From NCBI GenBank assembly GCA_001244265.2, contig CDLV01000008.1, positions 1,364,001-1,428,000 on the forward strand: a stretch of DNA of 64,000 bases, written 5' to 3'. The position numbers and the translations under genes are program-made. Numbering within the stretch: the first letter of the stretch is position 1; every line of letters begins with the position of its first letter. The notes beneath the pieces were generated by a model, which searched no databases, was not told the DNA's origin, and saw only the letters and a program-made list of their open reading frames with translations. Shown piece after piece: positions 15,429 through 45,994 of the stretch. This stretch comes from Microbotryum violaceum. Its lineage: Eukaryota.

Positions 15429-15440
15429 GCTCTACAAAAG

Positions 15441-15475
<35 letters not shown>

Positions 15476-15623
15476 AATCGCAGCGTTCTCTGCGCGCAGG
15501 GGTTTGACTTTCACCCAACTGCTTGCCGTCGTTGCTTTATAACCTCCTTTAGCTCTTTTTGTAGCGGTCCCAGCCAACCCGAAGGATAGCAATTTATGAG
15601 CCCCAGTCAAAAACAAAAAAAAA
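15429..15623 (+). mobile_element. String of LINE 3'-end tags: GCTCTAC-A(n), then about 135 nt of a family B terminus plus A(n)
   Basis: TCTAC-A(n) equals the family C terminus; 15473-15608 matches the end of B at about 36775-36903. Confidence 0.85.
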
Positions 15624-16838
15624 GTCGCTCGGGCTCAAGGGACCACCGCAGCCGGACGATCTCAGGAGCTTCTGGAAGGCGGTCAACTCGAAGGCACTGA
15701 CGGCGAGGGAGAGGGAAGTTTGGTTCAAGCTGATTCTCCGCTTCACCCCGACGCGCAAGCTGCAACACCAACAGAATCACGACACTTCTCCCGCGTGCCT
15801 CGTCTGCGAAGCGCCGGTGGACGACACCGACCACTACTTTTTCGGCTGCTTTGACTCGCGGAACGTCTGGATCGCGGCAAGGGGCGTGCTCTGCGACGCA
15901 CTCGGGTCCCAGTACACGACACTGCAACGGCTCTTTGGCCTCCCCAAGCTCAAGGCCAAGCTCAGCGAACAGGAAGGGGAAGGCAGGACGATCGAGATCT
16001 TCACGGGAATGGTTTTGGAGATGATCAGCAGTGGAAGATACAGGATGCAGAAGCACGGGAAGAGGAGAAGAGTGGTACTGGAGGAGCGGATGAAGTTGAG
16101 GGCAGGAGGAGCAAGGGGCGGGCGAGGGCAGTAGAGGCTGGGTTCGATTTCCCCCACCATCCCACACCCACACACACCCCACACACACACACCGAATCAC
16201 ACTCCCTCTTTCAAGAAGAAAAAAAAGAGAAAAAAAGAAATAAAACTGTATACTAAACATCTTGCTTTCATCTTTCATCTATTACAGGTCTGCTTTCGTT
16301 GCTCATGGACCGGCTCGTGATTTGGGGTTGACTCGACGGTGGCTCGCGCTCTTTGGCTTCGGGGTTCGGAGTCAAGGGAGGGATCAGCAGACACAGGCAG
16401 AAAGTCGGCTTTGAGGGGCCAGGGACTGCTGAGGTGGAGGTTTTGAGGGGCCTCCACCGCGTCTTGTTGTGACCAAGCATGGACTTGGGACTTCGCGGGT
16501 CAGGGTAGCTGCGCAGTCGCTCTCTTGTCTTTGTCTCGACCGAGTTGGAAAGTGACGGCGGGGTGGGTCTCTTGTCGTTAGTCAATTATTTTGTTACTCT
16601 TTCTCTTTCTCTCTCTCTCTTCTTCTCTCTCTCATTCGTCTCCTAGGGGGGAGCAACCGCTTGGCTGGGGCACTTGAATCCCAAGTATCGGATTGGTGGA
16701 CACCGGCCCGTTTCTCGCATCTTGCGGGCGGTTTGTGTTATCATCGTAGTCTTCCATCTAGTTTTTCCGTAGGCCAAAACAGGGGGAACAGGAACTGGGG
16801 GCAATATGATGAACGTTTTCTACAAAAAAAAATAAAAA
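15624..16838 (+). mobile_element. LINE family C, 5'-truncated fragment 1
   Basis: Matches 42828-44032 ([16 protein letters not shown], 3' UTR, TTCTAC-A tail). Confidence 0.92.
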
Positions 16839-16896: not shown

Positions 16897-18752
16897 TCTG
16901 GTTGGTCATCGACGCGGGTTCTGGCAGCACTCTAAGGAACCCGCCCTACAGCACGAGCACGTGTGGTCGCGCGTGGGTCAGTTGCTCAAGGCGAAAGCCT
17001 TGCTGCCCAAGACCGCGTTGCGACCTGCTCGGATACCTCTCAAGGAGGCTCCCCGTCCTCGGTGCTTCAACTTCTTTGGGCTCACCCGACCGTTCACTAT
17101 TCGCAAGCTTCGTCGGCTTGTGAACGTGGTTCGGTTCCCAGGGAGGGAGGATCGTGTCAAGCGTTTCCGTGATGGGTCTTCTCAGAGCGATAGGAAGCGC
17201 TTCTGGAGATGGCTTCATGACCGGTTCGCGTCTACTGTGGAGCAGGACACCCACTGGCGGCTCATGTACGACGTGACGCCGACGCGCAAGAGGCAGCATA
17301 CTCAGGGTCATGCCTCTTCGCCGACGTGTCTGTTCTGCGGCAACGATGCAGCGGTCATCGAGACGGTGTCGCACTACTTTTTCGAGTGCGCGTACTCGAC
17401 CAGCTTCTGGGGCGGGGTGCTTCGCATTCTGTTCGACAAGCTGGGCATCGAGGATACCGACGTCGATCCGTCGACGTTCACTCCGGAGCAGCTGACTATG
17501 GGGCTCCCCCTTTTGCGGGGTCGTGGGAGAACGACCTCGAAATGGATGTGGGTTCGGCTGGCTTGCGCGATCGGCTTCCAGCGGCTGCACCTGCTCCGCT
17601 GGCGCGTTCATCAGCGGTTCGAGCTGGACAAGGTCGTGGCCCCTCCCTCGCTCCCCAGTGCACTCAGAGCGTTCGAGCGAGATTTTCTCTCTCGAGCGGG
17701 TTTTGTGCCTGGGGCTCGAGATTGGGAGGTGTGATGACCGAGTTAAGTCCTTCCTTCCCATTTTCCTCCCCTCCTTTCCTCCCTTCTTTTTCGGAGGTCG
17801 ACTCCTCTTTTGTGAGCTGACTGTCTTGGAACTTGTTGCGCAGTGGAAGGCTGCGCACCTCTCCCTCTCTCTCTCTACTTTGCGCAGTAGCGGTTTTCGT
17901 TCTTGGATGGATCGGCAAGCCAGTACGATCGTCTTTGCGTTGGAGGCTTTGTGAAGTCTTTCCCCTCTCCTTTCCCCCCTTTTTCCCTTCCCTTCCTCTT
18001 CTCGTTCCTGTTGCTCGGTTGTTCATACGCTTCAGCCACTTCTCCTTTTACTCCTAAGCCGTGTGTTGGATTCCGTTGAATGGTTCGTTCGTTCGCGTTG
18101 GTCAAGATCTACGGCATGGCTCGGGAAGGAAGGTCGCTCGTTTCTGGTCAATATCCTCCCGTCAAGGCGAGGCTCGTTTCGTTGTACTGGATCGCTTTTC
18201 TCTCGGCCCCGACGGCTCAACAGCCAGCACTCGAGATTCAGCCAAGGGAGGACATCAGGCGCTGTCGGGGTGACGAGTAGCTGGGCCGCTGGGGCTTGGC
18301 TGCGGCCTGTTAGTCCCTGGGAATGAGGATTTCAGGGAAATCCCGGACTGGTAGATACGGAGAAAAAAAGAAAGTTTGGCTGAACTGAGATTCAAACTCA
18401 GGTCCACTCCATTAATCAGAGTTGCTCGGACCACTGAGCTACTCAACCAAGGGGAATAGAGCAAGGCAGCGGCGCACTCAAGTCGGCTCGGCTGGAAAGT
18501 CTCCCCCATAGTTTTGCTCCCGATCTTGGGTTGTGAAGCGGCAGCAGTACTCACCGCTCGTTGGAGTCCGCGTTAGGTGCTCGGCGGGTTTTGGTCTGCG
18601 CAGCACTCGTTGCGCGCAGGGGTTTGATTTTCACCCAGCTGCTTGTCGTCGTTGCTTTATTACCTCTTTTAGCGCTGTTTGTAGCGATTCTAGCCAACCC
18701 GAAGGATCGTAATTTATGAGCCCAGTTAAAAAAAAAAAAAAAAAAAAAAAAA
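16897..18752 (+). mobile_element. LINE family B, 5'-truncated copy 2
   Basis: Near-identical to 13568-15428. Confidence 0.93.
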
Positions 18753-18764
18753 GCTCTACAAAAG

Positions 18765-18799
<35 letters not shown>

Positions 18800-18948
18800 A
18801 ATCGCAGCGTTCTCTGCGCGCAGGGGTTTGACTTTCACCCAACTGCTTGCCGTCGTTGCTTTATAACCTCCTTTAGCTCTTTTTGTAGCGGTCCCAGCCA
18901 ACCCGAAGGATAGCAATTTATGAGCCCCAGTCAAAAACAAAAAAAAAA
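18753..18948 (+). mobile_element. Tag string matching 15429-15623
   Basis: Same GCTCTAC-A(n) and 135-nt B tag. Confidence 0.85.
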
Positions 18949-20167
18949 GTCGCTCGGGCTCAAGGGACCACCGCAGCCGGACGATCTCAGGAGCTTCTGG
19001 AAGGCGGTCAACTCGAAGGCACTGACGGCGAGGGAGAGGGAAGTTTGGTTCAAGCTGATTCTCCGCTTCACCCCGACGCGCAAGCTGCAACACCAACAGA
19101 ATCACGACACTTCTCCCGCGTGCCTCGTCTGCGAAGCGCCGGTGGACGACACCGACCACTACTTTTTCGGCTGCTTTGACTCGCGGAACGTCTGGATCGC
19201 GGCAAGGGGCGTGCTCTGCGACGCACTCGGGTCCCAGTACACGACACTGCAACGGCTCTTTGGCCTCCCCAAGCTCAAGGCCAAGCTCAGCGAACAGGAA
19301 GGGGAAGGCAGGACGATCGAGATCTTCACGGGAATGGTTTTGGAGATGATCAGCAGTGGAAGATACAGGATGCAGAAGCACGGGAAGAGGAGAAGAGTGG
19401 TACTGGAGGAGCGGATGAAGTTGAGGGCAGGAGGAGCAAGGGGCGGGCGAGGGCAGTAGAGGCTGGGTTCGATTTCCCCCCACCATCCCACACCCACACA
19501 CACCCCACACACACACACCGAATCACACTCCCTCTTTCAAGAAGAAAAAAAAGAAAAAAAAAGAAATAAAACTGTATACTAAACATCTTGCTTTCATCTT
19601 TCATCTATTACAGGTCTGCTTTCGTTGCTCATGGACCGGCTCGTGATTTGGGGTTGACTCGACGGTGGCTCGCGCTCTTTGGCTTCGGGGTTCGGAGTCA
19701 AGGGAGGAATCAGCAGACACAGGCAGAAAGTCGGCTTTGAGGGGCCAGGGACTGCTGAGGTGGAGGTTTTGAGGGGCCTCCACCGCGTCTTGTTGTGACC
19801 GAGCATAGACTTGGGACTTTGCGGGTCAGGGTAGCTGCGCAGTCGCTCTCCTGTCTTTGTCTCGACCGAGTTGGGAAGTGGGTGCGGGGTGGGCCTCTTG
19901 TCGTTAGTAAATCGTTTTATTACTCTTTTTCTTTCTCTTTCTCTCTCCTTCTCTCTCTCATTCGTCTCCTGGAAGGGAGCAACCGCTTGGCTGGGGCGCT
20001 TGAATCCCAAGTATCGGATTGGTGGACACCGGCCCGTTTCTCGCATCTTGCGGGCGGTTTGTGTTATCATCGTCGACTTCCATCTAGTTTTTCCGTAAGC
20101 CAAATATGAGGAACACGAACTGGGGGCAATATGATGAACAAGTTCTCCAAAAATAAAATAAAATAAA
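18949..20167 (+). mobile_element. LINE family C, 5'-truncated fragment 2 with an (AAAAT)n tail
   Basis: Same 5' breakpoint as 15624; variant 3' UTR. Confidence 0.9.
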
Positions 20168-20592: not shown

Positions 20593-25022
<4,430 letters not shown>

Positions 25023-28000
25023 AAGCCCCTCCCACTGCGCCTGCCCTCGAAGCCTCCGAGCCGAGCCCCGAGCCGTCTTCGCCCACGCCGTTGCCCTCAG
25101 CCGCGCCCAAAGCCCGACCCGATGACGCCGACACCGACGACGAGGCCGACGAAGAAGCCGAAGACCAAGAAGCACCTCCTAAGGACGTGGAAGACGCTAT
25201 GGACCAAGATGATGAGCACAACTAAAATCCAAAACGTGTCTTTTGTTGCTGCCAACGTGCAGTCAATCAATGAAGACCGTAAGCGTGCCTCTCTTTTCTC
25301 CAGTCTCCGCTCCCATAACGCCGACGTCTTTCTCCTGAGCGAAACTGGCCGACCTTCCCCCGAAAGGGTGGCCCAGTGGACTCAGGAGTGCCAAGACTTA
25401 AAGCTCTCCGCCCCTTTTCACTCCTTTCAACAACACTGCCATACTTTGGAAGAGCGACTCCGTGGTCATTGCTTTTGATCCCGAGTCGCCTCCAAACACT
25501 CTTCGTGCCTCTTTCTCTTTCCCGGACCGAGTCACCGACGCCACCTTTTGTGTGGGTGATTCAAAAGTCCGGGTTGTATTAATATACGCGCCTTCCTCCG
25601 ACAAGCCAGACAAAAACCGCTTCCTCTCACACCTCAGCACCGCCCTCCGACAAGTTGTACGTGACGAACCCTCGCCGCCTGCGCTCCTAGTCGGGGGGAC
25701 TGGAATTGTGTTGAGTCCCAGCCCCTCGATTCGGAGAACCAAAACGGAACGAATTATGGGGGTCAGGAGATGCGCGACCTTGCCACGGCCAACAATCTTT
25801 TCGACGCCTATCGGCTCCATCATCCCAAAGGACGAGCCACGACGAATCGCTCAGCGCCCGGCACGTGCCGTCGCCTTGACCGCATCTATGTCTCGCCTGA
25901 TTGGGTCGACCTCTTCCATGATCACAAAATTTGGGCTCCTGTCCTCAAATCGACGCACTCAATGGTTGTGGCACGGTTCCAAGTGCCGGGCGCAATCGAC
26001 ATCGGTCCGGGCAAATTCAAGCTGGGTTTGCACGTGATCGAGGGCGACGCGACCTGCGAGTACCTCACCTCCATTGCGCACCCTTTACAACAAAGCCTTC
26101 CTCCAGACGCCCAACGATCCACCAGCAGCTTGGACGTCCACCAAACACCGCCTGCTGCCCGAGCTGCAGGCTCTGGCCCGGACTTTCGCTCGGCGCGGCC
26201 CTGCGGTCCCGCCTCGACCCATCTCTGGCGGGTCCCTCTTCCATCTTCATCCGCCTGCGCAAAGTGCGAGCATCCGACCTGATCCCTTCGCTCACGGTCA
26301 ACGATGTTGTTCATTCCGACCCTGATTCGATGCTTGGAGCGGCCAGCGACTACTTCGAGCGGGTCTATGAGGACCGCCCCATCGATGACGCGGCCCTGAA
26401 GGCGATCATCGACGGCCTCGCTTCAACTCGCCTCTCCCCGCGGACTCACTCAAGCTCGAGGAAGCGTACCCGTTGGAGGAGATGACAAAGGCTCAAGCTG
26501 CGTTCCTCTGCGCCGTTGGCCTCGGCCCCAAAGCCCGCCAATGGTACCGAGCGACCTACACCGACCAATCTGCCTCGATCTTCCTCAACGGTTGGCTCTC
26601 TGCCACTTTCGACATCCTGTCGGGCGTTCGGCAAGGTGATCCTTTGGCTCCGTCTCTCTTCGTCCTGGCGATCGAAGGTTTTGCCTGTCAGATTCGATTG
26701 AGAGTCAAGGGCATCGATATTGCGGGCCTCCAAATCGTTGGCGAACTCCTTTTTGCCGACGACGCTTGCTGCGCACTCCACAACCTCTCGGACCTCGACC
26801 ACCTCAATCGGGCGATCGAGCTTTACGAACGGGCAAGTGCCAGCAAGCTCAGCAACGTCAAATCTTTCCTCTACCCCCTTGGAGCTTTTCGGGATCGGTC
26901 GATCGCCCCAGATCTCGGGACCTGGCGTCTCAGCGATTCGCACTTTCGCTACCTTGGTATTCAGGTCGGGGTGGAGATCGCCGAGGATGCGGGCTGGGAA
27001 GATGTCAAGGCCTCGACCATCGCTCGGATACGCTCAGTTCCGATGTACGATCTCCCATATGCAGCCAAGTGTTTGATCATCAACATCTACTGCTACACAA
27101 AGATCTTGTACTACAGTCGATTCCTTCCCGCCCCAAGAGCGTTGTCAAGGAGATCGAGGAGGCCGCCATGCTCGCCATTCACGGTCGAGCTTCGGATGGT
27201 ACTCAGAAACCCCCGAAGGTCTCTCGCCTGCGCCTCCGCACCCCTCTCGACCACGGTGGCTTCGGTTTGATCGACTTACCTCGGCGTTCTCGCGATCGAT
27301 CACGCAAAGTGGGTCTTTCATCTTCGGGACCCGGACGGCTGCTTCATTCGGCACCTCTTCGACATCCGCACTCGCCTTCAGGCGGCGGATGAACGCACCC
27401 CCTCTACCTTGCCCAAATCGGGCCCCAACCCACATCGTCGCTCGTGGGTCTGGATCTGGTGGGCCTACTTTTGCCACCCTCCTCCACAGTGGGAACGCGC
27501 GGTGAGGAAGACGAAGGCGCTGCTCCCTCCACGATGGATCCGCTACTTCGAAGCCTGGGATTTGGTGACAACGCTCAACCCCCCCGAACTTTCCAAGAGC
27601 CCGAATCTCGAGCGATGGGCAACACCCGTCCTCTACTTCCCAGCAGGCCACGGAATCCAACTCTCGGTGAACTCGACGCTTTTCCGAGGACCCGATGGCG
27701 AGGTGATGACTCCGTATTCGTTTGTGAACGCGTCCAAACGCCACCAAGCCTTCCTCTACCCTCCTATCCTCCCTGTCGGTCATCAGTGGGTTTTCTGTCT
27801 CCCCGAGCAGCGCTGGAATGCCTGGTGGAAGGCGCTACGCAAGGTTCGCAGGGTTCATTCGGACGCCGAAGACACGGCCTACCTCCTCTCCCTAGGGTCA
27901 CTTCATCCAGGTAGCCAACTCGCTTCTCCAAACAGCCCTTTTCTCCACAATCGATCTACCGCATGTGTCATGTGCCTGTCGGAGGCTCCGGAGACCCTGG

Positions 28001-28269
28001 CACACCTAGCGGTCGGTTGCCCGTTTGCCCGCCGCCTCTGGTCTGCGCTCACTCCTTTCCCACACCTCGACTTTGTTCAGTTCGTGTGCCCGATCGTTTC
28101 TCGCTCGGAACGCCGACTCGTCGAGCTGTGTCTACTCTTCTTCCACGCGATCCGGAAGCTCTCTCGTCACCGCCGATTTTCGTCGGATCTTCTGGGGCCG
28201 ATCGCCGAAACGGCATTCGAGGAGCTCCGCGCGTCCATCCAGGAGTCCAAACGACTGGTTTCGCTGTAA
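25023..28269 (+). pseudogene. LINE family D: acidic ORF1 tail and degenerate ORF2 (frameshifts, N-terminal RT region deleted near 26490); 3' boundary of the element uncertain
   Basis: ANVQSIN, LSET, IYAP, RRLDRIY, GVRQGDPLAPSLF, LFADD, FRYLG, CVMC...HLAVGC. Confidence 0.88.
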
Positions 28270-28512
28270 TCACCTAAGGTTTTTCTTAGTGGGTATGGTT
28301 GATTTTGTTCCAAGGTCAACGAGTCCTACACTACTGGCCTAGCCAGTGTGCTTGACTGCATTCCCTCCGTCTTTTCCGAGGATTTTTAGGCATTGATATA
28401 GAGATGCTGTCAATGAAATCTAAAAAAGGAGAGGGAGCTACTATAGAATGACGCTGGGCCGAAAGGGTTCTTCATCTTGTGCGAGGGCCGGCCTCGCGGG
28501 TGAAACAAAATG

Positions 28513-29776
28513 GAGAAAAGGACAAAAATGCCCTCAAAAGATAGCGAAAGGACGAAAATGCCCTCGCTTCTTTTCATGAGGACAGAAATGCCGTTCTCTA
28601 AAGGACCAAAATGCCCTCGGATTCTCGACTTCTGTAATGCTTGATATATCAGCTCATAACCAAGAGGGTAGCTTCTTGGAGTCGTTGTGATCACCGCCGT
28701 ATACTCAGGATCCCCAGAGATGCCGTGAGAATTCATATATCACGGTCGCAAAGCCAGGGGTCCTCATCGATCGTCAACGCGTCGAGGCGCGCGAGTTCGC
28801 GAATCGACGTTGGCCACCCTGCGCATTCTCGCCCCGGCATCGAAGTCACCACCGGCTTTCGACAATGGAACATTCTCTCAGAAAGGGGGAAAGTCTCTAC
28901 GAAAAGAAGGAGCTCACAGATGCGGGCCATCAATATGCGCTTGATCACCAGTTTCAGCTCGACATTCGCAAGTCTGACACGCGTCGTGAGCAAGAGTGTC
29001 CAAGATCCTCCGTGCGCCTTCTCTGCCACTGCTCTCTACACAGGAGAATGCAGTGTGTGGACCATCATTGTCTTCAATGAAGCCCACAGTTACCGATCGC
29101 TGCTACACACCGGCGACAGCAAGAGCAGACTTACGCGACATCGCTCCAACCTGTTCCATCTCGGGCCGAATGAAAGCTGCATCGTCTTCCTCGTGAGCGT
29201 CATGAGGTCGCGGTGAAAAGGGACAATAGTGACTCAACTGGAGAAGAAGAGGGTGTCATTATCGTTCCGTCACATCTCTCCAAGCGTACACGACGTCCGA
29301 TCAAGCGCAGGATCCGGAGTGCGGACGAGAGGTCCAAGCGTGACATGATCTGTGGCCTCTGCAAGAGGCCCGGACACAATCGAGCTACGTGCGATAGATA
29401 AAACCATTTGAATATGAGCATCAGGCGTTAAAAGTGTCAATGTGACTACAAGTTGAAGGCATGCTGGTCTGTATCATATGGGAATTCACTGCGGTCTATA
29501 CTCATCGCTCGCTTTCGACTCGGACGGGCCCTGACTTTGCGACCGTGATATATGAATTCTCACGGCATCTCTGAGGATCCTGAGTATACGGCGCTGATCA
29601 CAACGACTACAAGAAACTACCCTCTTGGTTATGAGCTGATATATCAAGTATTACAGAAGTCGAGAATCCCAGGGCATTTTGGTCCTTTAGAGAACGGCAT
29701 TTCTGTCCTCATGAAAAAGAAGTGAGAGCATTTTCGTCCTTTCGCTATTTTTCGAGGGCATTTTTGTCCTTTTCTC
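28513..29776. mobile_element. Non-autonomous Mutator-like (MULE) DNA transposon
   Basis: TIRs of about 247 bp (28513-28759 and 29529-29776) starting GAGAAAAGGACAAAAATGCCC; degenerate 9-bp TSD (AACAAAATG vs AACAAAAAA); internal remnant KRRIRS...CGLCKRPGHNRATC typical of MULE transposase C-termini. Confidence 0.85.
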
Positions 29777-29971
29777 AACAAAAAAATAGGACAAGCTCGG
29801 GTTTGAAACCTCAGCCTCTAGGGGTCGATGAACATGCGAGTTTGAAGCGTAATCAGGGTGCCAGCACGACAAATGGGCTAACCGAGGTAGGGGGGCGGAA
29901 GCGCTCCACAACCGGACTTGAATGCGAGAGCGGAAAGACACCTTTGGACAGGCCAACGTGGGCAAAAAAAA

Positions 29972-30053
29972 CGATCACGAAGGGGATCGAACCCTCGATC
30001 TTCCCCTTGTCATGAAGTAGGAGGGGGACGCCGTACCGCTTGGCCACGCAACC
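29972..30053 (-). tRNA. tRNA-Arg(CCU) with an intron of about 10 nt
   Basis: GGTTGCG/CGTGATC acceptor stem, A box TGGCCAAGCGG, TCCCC/GGGGA anticodon stem with loop CT-CCT-A, intron after position 37, B box GGTTCGATCC, T8 terminator directly downstream. Confidence 0.87.
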
Positions 30054-30160
30054 GGTCTTTTCAATATGGAAACGAACATATTCAACATTACAACAGACTG
30101 GCCAATCCCATGCCTCTCATACAAAAAAAAATCATACAAAAAAAAAAAAAAAAAAAAATC

Positions 30161-30186
30161 CACACACACACACACACACACACACA
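30161..30186 (+). repeat. (CA)13 microsatellite at the 5' end of full-length B
   Basis: Direct reading. Confidence 0.9.
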
Positions 30187-30261
30187 AAGTGTGTACCGTC
30201 GTGTAGTGTGTACAGTCGCCCACCAACCGCTTCAAGAGCTACAGGACGTCGACAAGAAGTG

Positions 30262-31955
30262 ATGCCGGATCCGCCCGGCCCACCCCCGCACCCGCCCAAC
30301 GCTCCGTGGGCTGGTGACGTGTTGAGAGATGAATCACTCAACACGGAAACCCGTGAGACGGTCACTGGAGGAACCGTTAATCCTCCAGCCTGGTCTGCCC
30401 AGGCTTCTCAGGCTCGATTGGACCATGAGAAGTCGATGCAGAAGGCTTTCAAAGCCCTTGGCATCGTACCATCCTCCAAGTCGACCCGCCGGCTGATGGT
30501 ACTGTTGCATGACCCTTCCAGCCCGCCTTCGCAGGCGCTGGCTCTCGCACGAGCTGCTCAAAGGGCGGTACGAAACGACGCGATGCCGGCCTCCAACGTG
30601 ATCCGAGTCATCATGGATGGTACTGGGTCCCCAAGAGGCCCTGTACAGATTGCGCTGCGTAAGCACTTTGGGCTGGCCGAGACGCCATTCATGTTCGCGC
30701 GGCCCGAGGGCGCCGAGCTTGACCCCGAGGTCGAGAAGCTCTTCTCGAAATGTGTGAAGCTGAACCCGATCGTGACGAAGGCAACGAAGAGGTTCCCGAT
30801 TGCTCGTCATATGTACGAGCTCGTGTTCGAATCCGACCAGGCCTGTCTCGAAGCCGCTGCAGCGGGTCCATTCCCCTATCACGGAAAAGAGATGGTCACC
30901 GAGCTCCCGAGTGTTTCCCCCCTAAACCACATCGTCCAGGTGCGATTCACCTTACCCTCCTCTTCCAGCGCGATTCCCGCTTCCGTGCTCCGAAAATCTC
31001 TCGACGCTGCTCTCACTTCCTCCTTCGGCCACGCTGGTTGCATGCAAGGGTATACCCTCATGCAATTACAGCGGGGCCTCGCGGTCGATCCGAACGGTGA
31101 CCCGATGGCCATGACCGAAGACGGGTTCCACTGCGCGTACCTTCGCTTACATGCTGATCTTTTCCAAGGCTCCACCGAGACGCAGAAGGCTGCGCTCAAC
31201 GCCGCCTTGCCACAAGAGATCGAGATCCTGGGCGCCAAGTACGGCTTGCGACACGAATTTAAGACGCACTACTGCGCCGTGTGCGATCGCGCCGGACACC
31301 AGTGGGGGGCTTGCAGGAAGCCGGTTTCGACTCCGGCCACCGCCGCCCCTGTTCCGGGGCCTCGACTTCGACTTCGACTTCGACCACCGGCTTCCGAGTT
31401 GCCGGAAAGAATGGGAAGCACGGTGGGCCTGCCGCATTGAACTCTCGTGCCTCTGGCACGAACATGATCCAGCTGGGACCTCGTGCTAACCCCGCAGGTG
31501 CAGCGACCGGCAACAAGGACGATGCGAACGACGGCGACGGTGACGACGACGACGACGACGGCGAATCGGTCGCTTCGACCGAACCGGAGGGCGGCGACAC
31601 TGGGAAAGAGATGTTGACCCGTGCGACCACGGGCCCAACAAAGGAGACGCAGACGACGACAGCGGCGCCCGTTTCGACCCCGACCTCTCCTTCGCCTTCT
31701 ACTTCTGCTCCGGCATCGCCTTTGTCCGGTGGCACGTCGGAATCATCGGCAACCGCGACGACCTCGATAGCCTCGACGAGTCCTCGACGCCTTCGTTCGA
31801 GCTCGGCACCCGGCAACCGACGTGTCACCCGGGCGGGATCCGCCATGATCCACGGTGCATCAGGGGGTGACGACTCAGGGGGCAACAGTTCAGGGGGTCA
31901 CAGGTCCGAGATGACCGAATTCGAGGGGGGCGGCGCTGATCCAATTTATTCATGA
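30262..31955 (+). CDS. Family B ORF1 (one frameshift near 31350-31440)
   Basis: MPDPPGPPP start (compare C ORF1 [11 protein letters not shown]), knuckle CAVCDRAGHQWGAC, ATGA overlap with ORF2. Confidence 0.8.
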
Positions 31956-34900
31956 TTGAGTCCCTCACCGTGTTGACGTTCAACGTCCGATCGATCAAGA
32001 ACGCAGTCAACCAAGTCAAAATCATCCGCTATCTCAAAACCCTTCGGCCGGCCCCTGCGGCCATTCTCCTGCAAGAGCACCACCTCAGCTACAACGCGTT
32101 GCGCGACGGCTTCGAGAGTGCTTGGCCAGGAGCTTGTATTCGTTTCGCACCTCATGTCCTTACCCTTATACCCGATGGCTCACCTCTGGCGGGCCGCCTC
32201 CTCTCCTCTACCCCGGTCGTGTTTGCAGAAGCCCCTCAATTCGACGGTCGGATCCTGCGCTCGGTGTTTCGTCTTGAGGAGCTCGATATCGAGATCATCA
32301 ACATGTATGCGCCGGTCAAGGGGGAAGAACGTCGCGACTTCTACGGGCTCCTGCACTTCACCGCTCCGGGGCCCAAGACTCTTCGGATCTTGGCCGGCGA
32401 TCTCAATGATTGTCCGGATGTATCGGTCGACCGAGTGGCCATCACCGATGGCGCTTGGACTCCTGTATCGCACTGGCAGACCTTGCTGTCAAAGATCGCA
32501 TTCAACCCACTCGACACGATCCGACAACTCCATCCCATCACCCCGGCATTCACTCGCCCTCACTACCTTGGTAGGGGGACAAACGAGAAATCTGCTCGTG
32601 GTCGCGGATCGATTATATCCTTGTCCAGCGCAGTTGGGCAAACCGGTTGTTGAGCGCTTCCACACTTTTCGATGCGCCCTGCTCGGACCACAGACCTGTA
32701 GTTGCGACTTTCGCATTGCCTACATCGAACGCTGATGCCGAACCCCCCTTTCTCTTCCCTCTACGAGCGATTTCATTTCGAGGCTCAACCCAACGGTCTT
32801 TGACGATCAAGACTTTGTCGCATCGATTCCCGGGGTCGTCGACGAGGTCTATCGAAGGCTCGAGGGGACCGCTCCGCTCGGCGACGTCTATGACGCCGCT
32901 CTGCGGGCGGTTGCAGTCGCTGGCCATGCACGATACCGCTCGACTCGTGCCGACATGCGCCGACTGCGGGCCGAGAACCAATCCGTCATGGAGGCGCTGG
33001 AGGCACGCGGTGAGCATATGAATGAGGCCGAGCGCGATGCGTATGCTCTCGCCAAGTCGCAGTTGGATCAGTTGGCGGTAAAGGAGGCTCAGTGGCTGCG
33101 CATTCGTGCGCATGTGCCGTCAGTCGACTCGAGGGAAGGTCAATCGGCAAGCATTCGCACGCGTCTCAACCGCCGGAGTCGCCAGACGAGCATCGTCTCG
33201 CTGGAGGATGTGGATGGCACCGAGACCGTTGACATGCAGGAGGCGCTGGGTATTGCTTCACGGCACGCACAGTCGCTCTTCACGCCGGACCCAGCTCGTG
33301 GCGACCCGACGAACCCACGTCGGTCCCTGCTCGACCCTATTCGCGCGGCGAAATGCTACGATGACGACCGCTCGGACCCTACGTTCGGTCGTCGGCTGCC
33401 CCTTCAAGCCAGAGTGGCGCTTGACGAGCCCTTCAACCTTTCCGAGGTCGAAGCGGCGTTGAAGAAGACGGATTCGGGCGATCACCGGGGCCTTCGGGCA
33501 TTCCGTATGAGCTTTTCAAGGCGCTGCCGACCTACTTCGCTCCCAAGCTGTTGGACTTGTTCAACTCGATTTGGGAGGGGGTAAAATGACGGCGTCCTTG
33601 GCAGATGGGCTGGTGCGGCTTTTGCCCAAGAACAAACCGGGGGCCAATCTGAAATCACTGGGGGCATATCGACCGATCACACTGCGCGAGACAACCTACA
33701 AGGTCCTCAGCAAGGTCTTGGTGGCGCGACTCAATGGGGTGCTCGGCGAGCTTTTGCCGCCGGCGCAACACGGGTTCATGCCATCAAGACGTTCAGCAGA
33801 CGCGGGAAGTCATCTCACTCTCCTTCTCGAAAAACTCAAGTCGCTAGGCACTGAAGTTTTCCCCGAGGGCGCCCTCTTGTCCTTGGATCAGCAGAGCGCG
33901 TACGATCGGGTCGATCACGCATGGATCTTCGACGTCTTCGAGGCCTTTGGCTTTGGTGAGCGTTTCATTTCCCTGCTGCGCGCTCTGTACGATCCCGAGA
34001 CTCTGGGGTGCGCTACCTCATCAATGGGTTCCCCACGGAGTTGGTGCGGTTGCTGTGTGGTCTCGGTCAGGGGGATCCCCTCTCGTGCCCGGTTTGGAAC
34101 ATCACGTTCCAGCCCTTCCTCGACGCCCTCGTTCGGCGCGGGATCGCGCTCGACCTGCAGAAGGTGTGGCCAGGGGGGCCGCGTGCGCAGCTTACGCATC
34201 TGGCGTTTGCCGACGATGCTGTGGTGGTAGTGGAGTCACCGGCGGCATTGTCGAAGCTGGAAACGCTGTCGCAGACGTGGTACGAGGCAACCAACGGGAA
34301 GACCAACACGGACAAGACGCTGGTGCTACCACTCGGACCGAACTGGCTTCGGGACGAGACTGCGCAGGCGCTGCCAACGGTGCAGGAGGGGGAGAGCTTC
34401 AAGTGGTGCGGCTATGCCTTCTTTCGCCACGGTGACTCGAAACTGTTTTGGACCCATGTTCTTGACAGGATCAAGGCCAAGACCCGCGCCGCTGGAGACC
34501 GGACACTTTCGCCGAGTGGGAAGGTCTTCTATGCCAACGCTCACATCATCTCGACGGTCCTCCACGTGCTGTCCTTCGACATACCGCCTCAATGGTTCAT
34601 TAAGGCGGCGGAGACAGCACTTACGGATTTTGTTTGGGGAGGAGCAGCGCGAAATACCGTCGCTCGCGATTTCGTGTTCCAGGCTCGGGAGGACGGTGGC
34701 TTGGGCTTGATTTCAATCGGCGACATCGTTCATTCGGTGGCGCTTCGATTTTGGGATGCTCTGGCGGGCTCGAACGAGGCGATCTGGGCGCCCCTAGCTC
34801 GCGAGAGCTGGAGGTCCCTCGTCGCTGCGACCCGCGATTTCAGTCCGTGGGGGTTCTTCAGCAGCACGGCTCGGGTCGAGAAGCTGTATCGCGACTCGAC

Positions 34901-35947
34901 GCGCTGGGGGCAGTCGTTGCAGCTGCCAGGGTCACAGTTCCAACCATCAAGTCCGAACTCCTTACGCTCCCCGAATTGCTCTCGCTTCCGCCTCGCCTCC
35001 CTTCACTCTATGCTGAAGGTGCCAAGCACGCATATGACGATGCGGACGCAGTGGCGAAGTTTGCGCAGATCGCGGACCTGTACTGGAGGGACGAAGGGAA
35101 GGGCTGGGCTCTGGTTGGTCATCGACGCGGGTTCTGGCAGCACTCTAAGGAACCCGCCCTACAGCACGAGCACGTGTGGTCGCGCGTGGGTCAGTTGCTC
35201 AAGGCGAAAGCCTTGCTGCCCAAGACCGCGTTGCGACCTGCTCGGATACCTCTCAAGGAGGCTCCCCGTCCTCGGTGCTTCAACTTCTTTGGGCTCACCC
35301 GACCGTTCACTATTCGCAAGCTTCGTCGGCTTGTGAACGTGGTTCGGTTCCCAGGGAGGGAGGATCGTGTCAAGCGTTTCCGTGATGGGTCTTCTCAGAG
35401 CGATAGGAAGCGCTTCTGGAGATGGCTTCATGACCGGTTCGCGTCTACTGTGGAGCAGGACACCCACTGGCGGCTCATGTACGACGTGACGCCGACGCGC
35501 AAGAGGTAGCATACTCAGGGTCATGCCTCTTCGCCGACGTGTCTGTTCTGCGGCAACGATGCAGCGGTCATCGAGACGGTGTCGCACTACTTCTTCGAGT
35601 GCGCGTACTCGACCAGCTTCTGGGGTGGGGTGCTTCGCATTCTGTTCGACAAGCTGGGCATCGAGGATACCGACGTCGATCCGTCGACGTTCACTCCGGA
35701 GCAGCTGACTATGGGGCTCCCCCTTTTGCGGGGTCGTGGGAGAACGACCTCGAGATGGATGTGGGTTCGGCTGGCCTGCGCGATCGGCTTCCAGCGGCTG
35801 CACCTGCTCCGCTGGCGCGTTCATCAGCGGTTCGAGCTGGACAAGGTCGTGGCCCCTCCCTCGCTCCCCAGTGCACTCAGAGCGCTCGAGCGAGATTTTC
35901 TCTCTCGAGCGGGTTTTGTACCTGGGGCTCGAGATTGGGAGGTGTGA
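31952..35947 (+). pseudogene. Family B ORF2 with several frameshifts and a TAG at 35507-35509
   Basis: Collinear with 6984-14405. Confidence 0.9.
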
Positions 35948-36927
35948 TGACCGAGTTAAGTCCTTCCTTCCCATTTTCCTCCCCTCCTTTCCTCCCTTCT
36001 TTTTCGGAGGTCGACTCCTCTTTTAGAAGCTGACTGTCTTGGAACTTGTTGCGCAGTGGAAGGCTGCGCACCTCTCTCTCTCTCTCTCTCCACTTTGCGC
36101 AGTAGCGGTTTTTTGTTCTTGGATGGATCGGCAAGCCAGGTCGATTGTCTTTGCGTTGGAGGCTTTGTGAAGTTTTTCCCTCTCCTTTCCCCCCTTTTTT
36201 CCCTTCCCTTCCTCTTCTCGTTCCTGTTGCTCGGTTGTTGACTACGCTTCAGCCACTTCTCCTTTTACTCCTAAGCCGTGTGTTGGATTCCGTTGAATGG
36301 TTCGTTCGTTCGCGTTGGTCAAGATCTACGGCATGGCTCGGGAAGGAAGGTCGCTCGTTTCTGGTCAATATCCTCGCGTCAAGGCGAGGCTCGTTTCGTT
36401 GTACTGGATCGCTTTTCTCTCGGCCCCGACGGCTCAACAGCCAGCACTCGAGATTCAGCCAAGGGAGGACATCAGGCGCTGTCGGGGTGACGAGTAGCTG
36501 GGGCTTGGCTGCGGCCTGTTAGTCCCTGGGGACCTCTACCTCCGGCTTCGACCCCCTACCTTGGCCCCTCGGGTGTGTTCCCCTCCTCTCTGTCTTAGTA
36601 TTCCTGGTTCTCCGTATCCCCAGTCGTGACTTTCTGTATACTCTCCCCCTTCTTTCTCTAGGCGCTCTTGCCTGGTTTTCGAGTATCTTTGCTCCCGCTC
36701 TTGGGACGTGAAGCGGCAGCAGTACTCACCGCCCGTTGGAGTCCGCGTTAGGTGCTCGGCGAGTTTTGATCTGCGCAGCGCTCTTTGCGCGCAGGGGTTT
36801 GACTTTCACCCAACTGCTTGCCGTCGTTGCTTTATAACCTCCTTTAGCTCTTTTTGTAGCGGTCCCAGCCAACCCGAAGGATTGCAATTTATGAGCCCCA
36901 GTCAAAAAAAAAAAAAAAAACCACCTC

Positions 36928-37022
36928 TACTTCACTTTACTTCACTTCACTTCACTTCACTTCACTTCACTTCACTTCACTTCACTTCACTTCACTTCAC
37001 TTCACTTCACTTCACTTCACTT
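36928..37022 (+). repeat. (CACTT)n pentanucleotide array, about 19 units
   Basis: Direct reading. Confidence 0.95.
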
Positions 37023-37079
37023 CGAAATCGCCCTACCGCAGTCTTCGATACTCGAGTTAACAAGTGATACACCGACAAG

Positions 37080-39355
37080 ATGTCTACAGGAGACCCTGGG
37101 TCCCCACCGCCGGCACCGCCACCACCGGTGTCCGCCACCAGCGTCCAGCCACCCCGCGACCAGATCCCGATAAGCTCGAAGAAGACGCAAGCCACGGGCC
37201 CCGCCACCGCCGCACCCAACTATGCCGCCGCTGCGAGTCAGGCGACTCAGTCACCTGAACAACAGCAACAACAACAACAGCGTGCCAAGGCTCTGGGCAG
37301 CCTCCTACAAGCCATGGGTGCTGTACCCGGAAACCGCATGGATCGTTGGGTCCAGGCCATCTACTTCGCCGAACTCTACCCCGTCGCCACCGCCACATCG
37401 CTGAAATTCTCGGCCTTGACGCGAACCGGTCTGTCGAGAACATCTTTGATTACGCCCTTGAAGTGACTCTGTCTCACCAGAGCGCCTCGCGAGCGTCTCA
37501 TGCCGACAAGACCGATCTCGTGGCCTGCGTCACGAGGCTGTTATCGCCGATCTCTCCTATCTGCTTTGAGCCTGGAGTTCCTCTGCCGGACCACCTTGCA
37601 GCCTATCGACCACAGATCCTAGGCGTACAACATTCATCAATCCTGCGTAATGGGGCGGCTCACCATCGCGTTACGGTTGGGTTCGTCACCGGCGAGGCAC
37701 GTGACGCTGCGCTTACGACGCCCCCTGCTCTCACTTGGCGATCGGCGAAGGCCCGCTTCGCGAAATCTCACAGGTTCCACCATAACATGGTCGAGCTTCA
37801 AATCAACGTCGGTGTTCAAGGAGTGCCTTCCATGGATGCCATCATCAAATCGTTCCAATTACTAGTGCAGGACTTGTCAGGCAAGGGACATTCGTGCCAA
37901 CTTGTGCAGGTTCTGCGCATTATCAGCGTGGACAACGCCTCGGCCTTTGCCCACGTTGCCGGAGACTACTCAGCTTTCCTACACTTCGATGACGACTCCC
38001 TGTTCAAACGCCCTAACACGACCTTGAAAGAGATCCTACCTTCGAGAATCGGCCTTCCCACTCGAGGCATCCCGGTCACCGCCCTTCGCCATGACTATGA
38101 GAAGGAGGCGGCTTGCGGTAGGTGCCACTTCGTTGGTCACGTGGGAACCTGCGGACTGGATCAGGAGAGCAAGCGAAAGGAGGCTCACAACGGCAACGGC
38201 AACGGCAACACCAACGCCAACAAGAACACCATCACCAACGACACCAACATTGCGGAGGCCGAGGCCCCCATTCCTGTGCCGGTTGTTAACAGGATCGCAT
38301 CACAGAATCGCTTCGCCGGGCTCGAGGTTGAGGAGGGACAGGAGGAAGCGGTAACTGGCCAGAGCGGACAGGGGCCAGAGGAATCGGGGGAGGAGGACGC
38401 TGGTGATAAGGCGGATGACGAGGACTCGGAGGACTCGGAGATGGAATCAGAGGCGACCGTGAAAACGGAGGCCATCATACTTAAGAGCGAGGACGAGTCG
38501 GTTTTAGAGGACTGCGGAGGATCCGATGGAGAGTTGATTGATGAGGATGAGGTGATGGCGGATGGAAGGGGCGAAACAGAAGGCAAGGTGGCGACGGAGA
38601 TGGAGGAAAGGGAGGTGGCGACGGAGATGGAGGAAGAGGAGGTGGCGACGGAGGTGGACGATGTGGACGAGGCAGGGGGAGCGACGAAAGCGGAGAACGC
38701 GGAAGCGACGGACTTAGGGGAGACGAACAGGCTGGGCAATGACGACGACAGCGACGCAACAGCAATCGCCGCCACCGCTTCCCGCGAATCGACACCCCAC
38801 GAACCAACCCCACCTTTGTCACCCGAAACTCTTGCCAAGTCGCTTCGCGAGGGGGAGGAGTGGGACAGGATCAGAGCTAACTGGGTTGAGCAGGCACGAC
38901 TCGAGCGGGACCAAAGCATCGAGAGGAGGCTCGACGCTGAAACCCCTTTGGTGCGTCACAACTTTGCCACGTGGGATGAGGACGGTGAGATACGTTCCAT
39001 CAATATCAGGGGGACCGCTTCGAAGTTCAAAAAGCCGGTAATGAAGAGGTCGCAGACTGCGGCGGACCTCAGTGACCCGAGTGACGAACCGACCGACGCC
39101 AAGCGAGTGATCATCAAAGGGAAGAGCCGCGTCGTTGTCAAGGATGGAACAGAGGGGCGGAGGGTGACGAGGTCGATGTCAGCGGCGGCGGCGATGCCGG
39201 TTGGCGTGACGAAAATGGACCGAGGGAAAGCAAAGGGGGTAGCCGAGGAGAAAAGATGGTCCGACCACGAGCCCGAGGACGATGTCCTGCCCGCCCTCCC
39301 CCTCTTTGAGGACGTCACCACCGCCAAGAGCGCTTCGACCTCAACTACCCATTAA
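37080..39355 (+). CDS. Family C ORF1 (one frameshift near 37350-37460)
   Basis: Knuckle [13 protein letters not shown]; long acidic tail with VATE(MEE) repeats at 38586-38655; TAATG overlap with ORF2. Confidence 0.82.
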
Positions 39356-42300
39356 TGATTAAGCACACCATCATCACCTGGAACGTGAGGAGGGGCATGG
39401 GGGTCCCGGAGAAACGACGTGACATTTACAACTACCTATCCCTTTTCAAAGCATCGGCCATTCTCATACAAGAGCACTTCATCAGACCGCACCTCTGGCA
39501 ACTCATCAAGGACGAGTACGAGGGCAAGCTCTTCATCAACCAACATTGTCTGACTCTAATTCCGGCTGACTCCCCCCTGATCGACGCCGAGCTCTTGCGC
39601 ACCCACTCGGCACTCGACGGCCGGCTCCTCGTCACGTCCTTTCGTCTGCGGGGCGACATCAAAATTCTAGAAATCAACAACGTTTACGCGCCCGTTGACC
39701 CAAAGCAACGAGCGAAATTCTTTGACAAACTCTTATTTCACAAAACACAGAAATCCCACCTCCGACTCCTTGGCGGTGATCTCAACGACTGCCCGCGCCC
39801 AGAAGTCGATCGGCGGAACCAAAGTCGGCGCGGCCACCACTGGCCAATCCTGATCGGCAAGCTCGACTCGGCCTACACGGACTGCATCCGCTACAAACAC
39901 CCCATCACCCCATCCTTCACTCGACCTAATCCCAATCGCAAGCGACCCAACTCCTTCTCCCGGCTTGACTACTTTCTCCTGCAACGGACACACCAAAAAA
40001 GACTCGATCAGGCCTCGACGATCTACGACTATCCCAAGGAGCTTTCCGATCACCGACCGGTCTTGATTGTGCTGGCTCTCTCAGACGATCCTGATGCGAC
40101 CCTCCCACAGCTCAGCCTACCTACCACATCAAACCAACTACATCGAATCAACACCACAACCTTTAAGACGGTGGAATTCCAGCGGATGATGGAAGGATGG
40201 TTGGAAGGGGCAAGCGGGGAGGAACCGGTGGGGGAGCTCGAGGTCATTCTGAAGGCGTGCAGGGATAGGGGTGGGGAGATGGCGAGGAGGTTGCATCGGG
40301 AGCGGACGGAACGGATGGAGTATTTGGTGGGGAGGGTGCAGGATCTGGAGGCGATACCGGAATGGGGGGAGGCGGAAACGGCAGAATGGACAAGGACGTC
40401 CGAGGAACTCAAGCGGGCGGTCGAGGAGCGCGCGCGCCTACTCCGGATCCGAGCCCACGTACCCGAGATCGCCTCCGAGGAACGACTGTCGCGGCCGGTC
40501 CACGCCAAGCTCGCGGCGCGGAACTCGGACTCCAAGATCACAGCACTGCGCTTGAGCAACGGAGAGCTAACGCATGACATTGATGTCGCTCTTGACCACA
40601 CGCAGGCGCATTTCCAGCGCCTCTACCACATCGAGCCTCGTGACCCGGACCGCGTCGACCGACTTCGGGACGATTTCCTCGCGCCGATCAGGGCGGCGCG
40701 GACTTGCGACGACCCGCGCTCGGATCCTCTCTTTCTGCGCCGACTCTCGGAATCACAGAACGACTTACTCCAGCGACCAATCACCGAGGACGAGGTCGTG
40801 GCCGCGATCGGGACGACGCACCCGGGGCGATCGCCGGGACCGTCGGGCGTGCCCTACGAACTCTACCAGACCGCACCCAAGGCGTGGGCCAAGGTGCTGA
40901 CCAAGGCCTACAACGTGATGATAGAGCGAGGCTCACTCTCTCCCAAGCAGGGCCAAGGACTCGTGCGCCTCATCTTCAAGCGACACAAGAAGAATGCTGA
41001 TCGCGCCGAACTTTCGGCGTACCGGCCGATCACCCTGCGCGAGTGCGATTACAAGATCTTTACCAAGGTCTATGTCGCCCGTTTGAACCAAATTCTACCG
41101 GATCTCCTCCCGCCGCAGCAGCACGGATTCGTCAAGGACCGCCGATCGGCTGACGCTGCACTACACCTTCGTCTCCTGATCGAGGAAGTTGGCGCGCGCA
41201 GGACCGAGTTCCCCGCGGCCGCACTCTTATCTCTTGACCAATCGTCCGCCTACGACCTCGTCGAGCATGACTGGATCTTTGCCATCTTTGACGCTCTGGG
41301 CGCTCCTGCCACCTTTCTTCGCGTGCTGAGGATGCTCTACTCGGGTGACTCGACCTCGGCCCGCTACATCATCAATGGGTTCTTGACGGCGCCGGTACGA
41401 CTGACGTGTGGGCTCGGCCAAGGGGACCCGGCGTCGTCGTCGGTCTGGGACATCGTGTTTCAGCCGTTTCTGGATGCTCTACACCGTCGAAACATCGCGC
41501 TGAATCTCTCCATACCTGCACTTCATCCGTACCCACAGAGCCGCGCCATTACATCGCTTGCTTTTGCCGATGACGTTGTCGTCGCCGTCGCGGGCTTGGG
41601 GTCACTCAACTTGCTCGATGACCTGGCGCTCGACTGGAGGCATGCAACGAATGGCCGGCTCAACACGGACAAGACGGTCGTCCTACCGATCGGACGCCGC
41701 TGGGACCCGGGGCAACGCCCGCTCGTCGTCAAGGCCGCAGGCGAGTCGCTCGAGTGGATCGGCCTCCCTTCGACCCGAGCGGCGACACCGAACTCGCCTA
41801 CGCGAATCTCATCGAACGCCTCGAGGCGACGCTGGAAGGGGTTCAGCATCGCTGGCTCACACACCACACCCGTGCCTTTTACGTCAATCGGTACGCCATC
41901 CCCAAGATCCTGCACTTCCTTGCAGCCGACATCCCGCCGCCCGAAGTCGTCAAGAAGCTCGATGACATGCTCGTCGATTTCGTCCGTGGGGGCAAGGGCA
42001 GGACCAGCTACGGCAGAGATATCGTGTTCACAGCCAAGCTCAAGGGGGACTCGGGGTGATCAGGATGCAGGACGTCGTGGACGCGGTTGCGGCACGGATC
42101 TGGGACGTTCTTCTCGGCGGTTCGGGCGCGATCTGGCAAGGACTTGCGCGCGTGGCACTCCAGCGAGCTCAGTCCGACCTCGACCTGGCCACCGATCTCT
42201 GGCCACATCCATCCACTCCCATCCCCAGCGACCTCCATCCCCGATGGCGAGCAGCATTGGGGGTTCCGAAACAGCAAGACGCGCAGGTCAACCCGAGGAC

Positions 42301-43372
42301 CTTGACCACCGCGAACCTGCTCGCGCTTCCCACCTTGCTCGGCAGCCTCCACACCCCCATCAGAGGGAGACAGACCATCGACGCGGTTCATATACCTGAC
42401 TACCTTCGTCTCCAGGGCTACCCGAAGGTGGCGGATCTCTACCGGCGCGAGTTGTATGCGGGTGGGGGGTTTCACCTTTGGACGCCGCCGGCGGATGTGC
42501 TCGGCGACAACAGCGAGTACGATCGACGCGGGCTCCCGCAGCGACTGGCAATCGCGGCCTGGTACCGGTTTACTGTCGATCGACACAAGAACACGCCCTT
42601 GGCGGTGGCGGTGGCGGCAGGACGGCTCAACGTGCCTCCCCGGATCGGCACCAGCGCACCGCTCGAGGCGATTCTCCCCAAGCCCGTGGCCCGCTTCGCA
42701 ATGGAGCAGCGCCTTCCGGACCCGGTGCTTCCACAGCAGGCGAGCCAGTACAAGCTGCTGAACATGGCTCGACCGTACACCATCCGTCGCATCCGCCGGG
42801 TCCTGAACGCGAAGGCCTTTACCAACACGCTCGGGCTCAAGGGACCACCGCAGCCGGACGACCTCAGGAGCTTTTGGAAGGCGGTCAACTCGAAGGCACT
42901 GACGGCGAGGGAGAGGGAAGTTTGGTTCAAGCTGATTCTCCGCTTCACCCCGACGCGCAAGCTGCAACACCAACAGAATCACGACACTTCTCCCGCGTGC
43001 CTCGTCTGCGAAGCGCCGGTGGACGACACCGACCACTACTTTTTCGACTGCGTTGACTCTGGGAACGTTTGGATCGCGGCAAGGAGCGTGCTCTGCGACG
43101 CACTGGGGCTCGACACGATCGACAACACGCATTACACGGCTGTTCAACGCATGTTCGGACTTCCGAAGCTCAAGGCCAGTCTACGCGATCAAGAAGGAGC
43201 GGGGAGGACGATCGAAATATTCACCGGGCTGGTCTTGGAGATGATCAGCAGCGGGAGGTGGGGGATGCAGAAGTGGGGGACGAAGATGGAGGGTGTTGTG
43301 AGGAGGAGGATCATCTTGGAGGAGAGGTTGAAGCTGAGGGCGGGAGGAGCTTGGGGGAGGAGAGGGCAGTAG
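39355..43372 (+). CDS. Family C ORF2 (EN-RT-CCHC); two apparent homopolymer frameshifts near 41768 and 42050, possibly sequencing errors
   Basis: TWNVR, IQEH, GDLN, RLDY, SDH, GLGQGDP, FADD, CLVC...HYFFDC; strong similarity to family A ORF2. Confidence 0.88.

Positions 43373-45960: not shown

Positions 45961-45994
<34 letters not shown>

Follow-up and report, generated by a model that had tools for sequence, protein, structure and literature searches.

The Zepp retrotransposon inserts into existing copies of itself, and this nested insertion yields tandem arrays of a single orientation that consist mostly of 3' ends owing to 5' truncation (PMC8226300). The TRE5 elements are APE-type retrotransposons with two ORFs, an ORF2 made up of APE, RT and zinc-finger domains, an oligo(A) tail and an ORF1 of no known family; they are strictly associated with tRNA genes, inserting 44-54 bp upstream of them in the opposite orientation (PMC5006619, PMC5911963). 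NLTR-B from Polysphondylium inserts 39-64 bp upstream of tRNA genes, and TRE3 goes to positions 40-150 bp downstream in the same orientation as the tRNA (PMC5911963, PMC5006619). In the accessible table of a 2018 review, tRNA-targeting non-LTR elements are listed from dictyostelids only, and the entries for fungi are LTR elements only (PMC5911963, PMC5006619). The Tx1-clade elements Keno, Kibi and Koshi, which are APE-type and found in animals, prefer small-RNA genes or microsatellites as targets (PMC4494074). In Microbotryum, the anther-smut genomes of which are studied for the accumulation of transposable elements on mating-type chromosomes, the genome and transposable-element papers report 134 tRNAs, 392 LINE copies and 0 SINEs; the accessible text of these papers, supplementary tables aside, carries no statement on LINE targeting or on a link between LINEs and tRNA genes (PMC4469406, PMC10502011).

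The window analysed here, a 64-kb stretch of DNA from Microbotryum violaceum, is eukaryotic in character, with a G+C content of ~58% and a wealth of transposable elements (Table 1). We lean towards a joint reading of this region in which a host tRNA gene lies within a nest of LINEs, the array beside it has grown by insertion into LINE tails, and the founder of that array went into a Pol III-linked hot spot. The tRNA-Arg(CCU) gene would be an ordinary single-copy host gene of the fungus, located outside any LINE on an island of ~425 bp of unique DNA that was split by a later MULE-like insertion, and this island would sit inside a nest of L1-like LINEs of at least 48 kb.

Table 1. Features of the 64-kb window, in window coordinates.
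Feature	Position	Strand	Remarks
LINE A	1-6947	+	tail TCATAC+A8 (6934-6947)
LINE B, copy 1	from 6966	+	interrupted by the short copia element
Copia element, short	9512-12927		244-bp LTRs, 100% identical; inside LINE B copy 1
Composite units, 3.3 kb	13568-16837; 16897-20163; 44092-47358		order: B 3' part, cassette, B' tail, tag, 145-bp B tail, C-like 3' part, 55-bp B tail
191-bp cassette	14997-15187		also near 18322-18512 and 45518-45708; holds antisense tRNA-like gene
Degenerate tRNA-like gene	15052-15123	-	Rfam tRNA, 43.7 bits (901-base scan); anticodon loop tta; position 33 not U
Further tRNA-like copies	18376-18449; 45572-45645		within duplicated units
B'-type LINE tail	15188-15428	+	5'-truncated, 233 bp + A22; 5' end faces the tRNA-like gene from 64 bp upstream
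Copia element	20593-25022		then tandem partial LTR repeats, 24704-25022
LINE D	25023-28428	+	5'-truncated; APE start, RT, zf-RVT; stop at 28269; repeated part ends at ~28428 with A6
MULE-like DNA transposon	28513-29776		non-autonomous; 248-bp terminal inverted repeats; imperfect AACAAAA(T) duplication at flanks
Unique DNA downstream of tRNA-Arg(CCU)	29777-29963		from end of MULE-like element to terminator; no self-match
Pol III terminator, T8	29964-29971	- (A8 on + strand)	directly 3' of tRNA-Arg(CCU); from sequence
tRNA-Arg(CCU) gene	29972-30053	-	Rfam RF00005, 44.7 bits (gathering score 29), E 3e-06
Upstream flank of tRNA-Arg(CCU)	30054-30116	-	unique, 63 bp; A/T-rich beside the gene; in the low-depth contig of the tRNA
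Tag 1, TCATAC+A9	30117-30131	+	last 6 nt of LINE A-type tail + poly(A)
Tag 2, TCATAC+A21	30132-30158	+	same hexamer as LINE A end
LINE B	30159-36920	+	structurally full-length; 5' UTR with (AC)12; ORF1 from 30262; tail ...CCCCAGTC+A17
LINE C	36921-44026	+	full-length, directly after LINE B A17; (TTCAC)n 5' region, ORF1, ORF2 with APE and RT
Rest of 18-kb sub-array	44036-47933	+	55-bp B tail + A17, third composite unit, TCTAC-A tags
Internal LINE B fragment	47382-47933	+	552 bp; tail-less; abrupt end at 47933
Host genes MUS81, Rad9, helicase	from ~52 kb
MUS81 reading frame	52965-55535		97% / 96% identity to Microbotryum silenes-dioicae / M. lychnidis-dioicae proteins

An earlier note on this DNA had described an intron-containing tRNA gene with a terminator on the minus strand, and our analysis bears this out. 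In addition to the Rfam match, which scores above the model threshold, ARAGORN run in intron mode places a tRNA-Arg(cct) at 29971-30054 and an intron of 10 nt behind its position 37, i(37,10), and the T8 run follows directly. The intron occupies the canonical 37/38 site, one base 3' of the anticodon, in a complete cloverleaf; without intron mode ARAGORN misses the gene. Three G-U pairs are present in the acceptor stem, and against the consensus motifs the B-box has two mismatches and the A-box one. The combination of score, intron position and terminator is that of a functional nuclear tRNA gene as judged by sequence, and "intact-looking" is a fair description of a gene with this predicted function. 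A search of the window for other tRNA relics gave only noise when the ARAGORN thresholds were lowered (54 calls at -ps80), and a scan with A-box/B-box motifs found no further convincing relic. The Rfam scans of the full 64 kb missed, at both thresholds, three tRNA-like copies of 43.7 bits that a scan of 901 bases recovered; filter settings therefore matter for degenerate tRNAs, and absence from a large scan is weak evidence.

All LINEs of the window are on the plus strand, so that the tRNA-Arg(CCU) gene stands head-to-head with them. The ORF2s of copies A, B, C and D contain the Pfam domains Exo_endo_phos (APE), RVT_1 and zf-RVT, and the best match of a LINE ORF2 among solved structures is the human LINE-1 ORF2p (2.5e-27); no Pfam family, including Transposase_22, was found for the ORF1s. 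LINEs A and C are related (56% ORF2 identity), the RT of B is ~45-47% identical to those of A/C, and that of D only ~24% (also ~24% to A); the ORF1s of A and B, with RTs ~47% identical, show no detectable similarity. The ORF2 of LINE A has 88 homologues, which are nearly all from Microbotryum species apart from two from Rhodosporidiobolus and one JGI protein with 26% identity. Together with the MUS81 identities, these protein matches mark the host as a Microbotryum anther smut. Each element carries its own terminal motif (TCATAC, TCTAC or CAGTC) ahead of the poly(A). The identical LTRs of the short copia element indicate that it is probably a recent insertion. Within this element, at 11847-11988, Rfam gives sub-threshold matches to the plant miRNA precursors MIR5534 (64 bits) and MIR6426 (55 bits on both strands); this segment is probably a long palindromic hairpin rather than a miRNA gene.

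The 18-kb array next to the tRNA-Arg(CCU) gene opens with two TCATAC-A tags and a full-length LINE B, with the 5' ends towards the tRNA, as the earlier note had it. Measured from the 5' end of the tRNA, LINE-derived sequence starts at 63 bp, and its opening hexamer runs to 30122, at 69 bp. These tags are the last bases of LINE tails, TCATAC being that of family A and TCTAC that of family C. TCATAC followed by at least eight A occurs three times in the window against 0.03 expected, a number reached in 0 of 100 shuffles, the third copy being the tail of LINE A itself; for the TCTAC-A motif seven occurrences were observed against 0.02 expected. The ORF2 of the full-length LINE B (APE, RT, zf-RVT) is broken by frameshifts into many frames, and LINE C ends in ...TTTCTAC followed by A9. 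A clean target-site duplication for the founder event was not found, the right end of the array being a truncated internal fragment of LINE B. We read this end as the mark of a deletion or rearrangement in which the original right flank would have been lost; the ~4 kb of coding-looking sequence that follows (47934-52180, before MUS81) has no Pfam match, which leaves nothing from which to rebuild the target site of the founder.

Other short pieces of the same kind, in which an A-run follows the terminal 4-7 nt of a LINE tail, lie between LINE pieces elsewhere in the window: ATAGTC/TAGTC before LINE B copy 1 (6948-6965), GCTCTAC-A4-G-A32 after the B' tail (15429-15472) and TCTAC-A12-TCTAC after the C-like tail (47354-47381). 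These further tags may be products of abortive reverse transcription or of template switching. Both full-length elements begin with microsatellites. The start of LINE B (30162-30200) consists of (AC)12 and then GT-rich sequence able to pair with it, and that of LINE C (36931-37023) of ~18 TTCAC repeats; the window holds one full-length B and one full-length C, and these starts may be either element-encoded 5' ends or additions at the junction.

Thirteen LINE 5' junctions of the window were curated by hand, copies within duplicated units being left out. Ten are found 0-18 bp past a run of at least eight A of the preceding LINE, one (LINE D) abuts a copia LTR, and the remaining two belong to the tRNA and the tRNA-like gene, upstream of which they lie at 63 and 64 bp. 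Head-to-tail junctions also exist far from any tRNA, for example at 6966, 15479, 15626 and 16842, and LINE pieces of 55, 145, 233 and 552 bp, together with tags of 5-6 nt with poly(A), are interspersed among the longer copies. Between array members no recurrent target-site duplication of the -63 region was detected. Because those ten junctions lie directly behind poly(A) tails, the polarity of the array needs no tRNA anchor. It had been suggested in the earlier note that the LINEs use Pol III genes as anchors and that repeated insertion upstream of them builds a polar array; for the polarity this is not required, and the idea of a founder placed relative to the tRNA gene survives. We propose that the array would have grown as target-primed reverse transcription (TPRT) set new LINE copies, most of them 5'-truncated, within the poly(A) of a resident copy or immediately after it, together with abortive tags composed of the last 5-6 nt of the LINE and poly(A); the outcome would be a same-strand, head-to-tail array, as in Zepp.

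A further process appears to have acted on the 3.3-kb composite unit, which is present three times with 98% identity in addition to the 552-bp piece. The later copies begin at the same position of B, right after an A16/A17 run. Because the units share this start point and have extended flanks and patchy identity, their sequences suggest that they were shaped by DNA-level duplication and gene conversion atop retrotransposition, and these events would have copied the unit later than the growth by TPRT.

Each composite unit contains the 191-bp cassette with the antisense tRNA-like gene, and ARAGORN reports three identical "tRNA-Stop(tta)" matches in the window. A T-rich run begins 3 nt after the tRNA-like gene at 15052-15123. 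In the alignment the cassette stands in place of 157 bp of the LINE B 3' UTR, and no tRNA-like match was found in LINE B's own 3' UTR. The B body to the left is ~99% identical to LINE B up to the break, where it stops without a tail 55 bp from the tRNA-like gene; the B' tail to the right is 82-93% identical to the LINE B tail. The pieces facing the two tRNA-type loci, lineage A tags in one case and a B' tail in the other, belong to different LINE lineages. The cassette may be either a relic host tRNA locus caught between two separate LINE pieces or an internal module of a B' subfamily; on the former reading the equal spacing of 63/64 bp is striking, and on the latter it is meaningless. Under both readings the tail-less B body 55 bp from the tRNA-like gene calls for one more event, a deletion or a gene conversion. 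A 105-aa frame across the cassette returned 0 matches among 5.8 billion proteins (57-184 aa only; 7 candidates, none scored) and 0 among 1.84 billion representatives, results that are uninformative on copy number.

The second tRNA-like gene likewise has a LINE piece at 64 bp, namely a tail in the same orientation but from a different lineage, and on this basis we infer a hot spot for founder insertion. The orientation is opposite to that of the tRNA at both loci (63 and 64 bp), a sample of two that includes one ambiguous locus and comes from one window. On this view the founder would have landed where the Pol III transcription complex has its upstream edge, ~63 bp ahead of the mature tRNA, and would point the opposite way to it. 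The distance at which the array starts hints at tRNA-guided insertion, short of proof, and, with two loci in one window, it is a reasonable lead that Pol III genes have a TRE5-like founder hot spot ~63 bp upstream. Tentatively, and with less than an even chance of being right, we extend it to the proposal that at least two unrelated L1-like lineages of Microbotryum set their founders ~63 bp upstream of tRNA genes in the opposite orientation, in convergence with TRE5 and NLTR-B.

The proximity may also be a coincidence, an account that we find possible though rather doubtful. A host tRNA gene would have been engulfed by the nest and its island kept by selection, poly(A) targeting alone would have built the array, the nearby junction would be due to chance or to A/T-rich open DNA, and the 64-bp case would be internal to B' or a chance match. 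Poly(A) targeting by itself explains most of the junctions (10/13), a junction near a tRNA is not unlikely in a window so dense in transposable elements, two elements that follow unrelated mechanisms or rules of orientation, the MULE-like one and LINE D, are close neighbours as well, the site was chosen for its adjacency, and the accessible Microbotryum literature gives no hint of a LINE-tRNA link. Coincidence accounts less well for the second locus, which was found independently of the choice of site and agrees in side, in orientation and, within 1 bp, in distance, and whose cassette resembles a complete gene context with an upstream flank, a tRNA-like sequence and a T-run, a module that LINE B's own 3' UTR lacks.

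A strict ruler of the TRE5 type, by which each member of the array would have been inserted at a fixed distance from the tRNA and older copies pushed outward, is very improbable. The upstream side and opposite orientation are those of TRE5, and the two ORFs with an APE-RT-ZF ORF2 are those of the TREs; later members, however, follow immediately on the poly(A) of the copy before them, the -63 duplication is not repeated, and the same type of junction is formed far from tRNAs. The sole possible duplicate, CCATGCCTC to the left of the tags against CCACCTC after the A17 of LINE B, was rejected as a target-site duplication, for it is gapped by 2 bp and overlaps the C-type tag motif.

The proposed founder hot spot presupposes a tRNA gene that belongs to the host, and contigs of four public DNA runs (X1, X9, X11 and X15) were aligned to 27000-32000, where their word depth is not to be equated with copy number. 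The tRNA-Arg(CCU) gene is contained in one contig in each of three runs: 29747-30122 in X15 (depth 179.8, 0 differences), 29747-30108 in X1 (depth 52.1, 4 substitutions and 8 gap letters) and 29782-30122 in X11 (depth 3.63, 0 differences). In the same runs the bins over LINE D, the MULE-like element and LINE B are 20- to 500-fold deeper, at hundreds to tens of thousands. X9 has no cover over 29839-30172, a gap that proves nothing and does not speak for an empty site. In X1, a second strain, the contig ceases to match at 30108, which leaves 8 bp to tag 1, and 33 further letters are unaligned; the tag 1 junction may differ in this strain.

A second low-depth contig (28399-28542 in X15, depth 221, 0 differences) bridges the end of LINE D to the MULE-like element, spanning from 30 bases before ~28429 to 30 bases into that element, and the contig of the tRNA likewise begins 30 bases inside the element's other end. 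The contig ends at 28399/28542 and 29747 thus fit repeat boundaries at ~28428, 28513 and 29776; the contigs were presumably made with 31-letter words, and we take the 30-base overlap to be the behaviour of a word graph at a repeat boundary. In X9 and X11, loose contig ends at 28422 show that other copies of LINE D diverge there and continue into an A-rich tail of their own. The end of LINE D is followed by 85 bp of unique DNA and then by the MULE-like insertion, and the non-MULE DNA from the end of D to the tRNA amounts to 280 bp; the unique DNA that bears the tRNA gene comprises 28429-28512 and 29777-30116. The MULE-like element went in on the downstream side of the tRNA-Arg(CCU) gene, at a distance of 195 bp. 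It is multi-copy, as indicated by high depth in all four runs and by contig ends at its termini; its inverted repeats (28513-28759 / 29776-29529) are 95% identical and contain short subterminal repeats, and the label "MULE-like" reflects our reading of this repeat structure.

These contigs bear on the reading of the sequence as a pseudo-tRNA or the head of a tRNA-derived SINE, an objection that the earlier note had raised against itself. The modest score of 44.7 bits and the three G-U pairs of the acceptor stem would suit such a sequence, yet the low depth, the single contiguous contig and the unique flanks, the canonical intron position, complete cloverleaf and immediately following terminator, the identity of the sequence between two differently labelled run sets, and the 0 SINEs annotated in the accessible text of the M. 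lychnidis-dioicae genome paper make this reading more improbable still. By the same depths both the SINE head and carriage by LINE D are rejected, for the tRNA-Arg(CCU) gene is not seen to travel with an element in multiple copies, as a tRNA-derived SINE or a LINE-carried tRNA would. Least probable of all, and contradicted by the contigs, is capture, in which the tRNA would be carried antisense in the 3' UTR of LINE D or transduced by it and D would end in the TCATAC-A tail; the earlier note had raised carriage in the 3' UTR because D has no evident tail of its own before 30122. The A6 tail of D is short and easily missed, and another part of the window does have a degenerate antisense tRNA-like sequence with a B body on one side and a B' tail on the other, but the repeated part of D ends at that A6, the low-depth tRNA contig and the bridging contig set the tRNA apart from the deep D bins, the other D copies leave for their own A-tail before reaching any tRNA, and D is distant in its RT from A, the owner of the TCATAC tail, with no similarity between the 3' UTRs of the two.

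Returning to the joint reading of host gene, tail-targeted array and founder hot spot, if the placement of founders at ~63 bp is true, it would be the first case of a non-LTR element targeting tRNA genes in fungi, given that the 2018 review lists only dictyostelids in its accessible table. If the 63/64-bp spacing holds genome-wide, tRNA targeting would be extended from social amoebae to a basidiomycete, niche building would be a two-step process in which a founder at a Pol III gene is followed by self-targeted growth via poly(A) tails, and a testable model would be at hand for the start of LINE-rich islands in anther-smut genomes. If the spacing fails, the locus reduces to a Zepp-like nest of LINEs that has closed around an ordinary host tRNA gene.

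Among the systems compared, the Tx1-clade elements share with the window LINEs the APE type; Tx1 elements insert inside their target, whereas no element interrupts the tRNA-Arg(CCU) gene, which is separated from the junction by 63 bp. Human LINE-1 prefers TTTT/A insertion sites, and the likeness to it consists in the ORF2 structure match, poly(A) tails, 5' truncation and A-rich insertion sites; the window LINEs differ in an ORF1 without Transposase_22 and in the terminal motifs before the poly(A). From TRE3 the arrangement differs in that LINE D is downstream of the tRNA but in the opposite orientation.

With Dictyostelium TRE5 the window LINEs share the domain order of ORF2 (APE-RT-zf), an ORF1 of no known family and the A-tail, and at the two tRNA-type loci they may share the upstream side and the orientation. 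The distance of 63-64 bp is outside the 44-54 bp reported for TRE5 and inside the 39-64 bp of NLTR-B, and it comes from two loci only. The strict tRNA association of TRE5 is not seen here, most copies being in poly(A) tails with no tRNA nearby. Targeting by TRE5 depends on the B box, and its ORF1 protein binds TFIIIB. The Zepp and Zepp-like L1 clusters of the green algae Chlorella, Coccomyxa and Chlamydomonas are matched in the junctions behind poly(A), in tail pieces as short as those of 55, 145 and 233 bp, and in an array that is same-strand, head-to-tail and rich in 3' ends. The window differs from them in its fungal host, in the several unrelated lineages (A/C, B and D) that share one array, in the tags of 5-6 nt and in the tRNA gene at the array origin; the likeness to Zepp is put forward as one of architecture.
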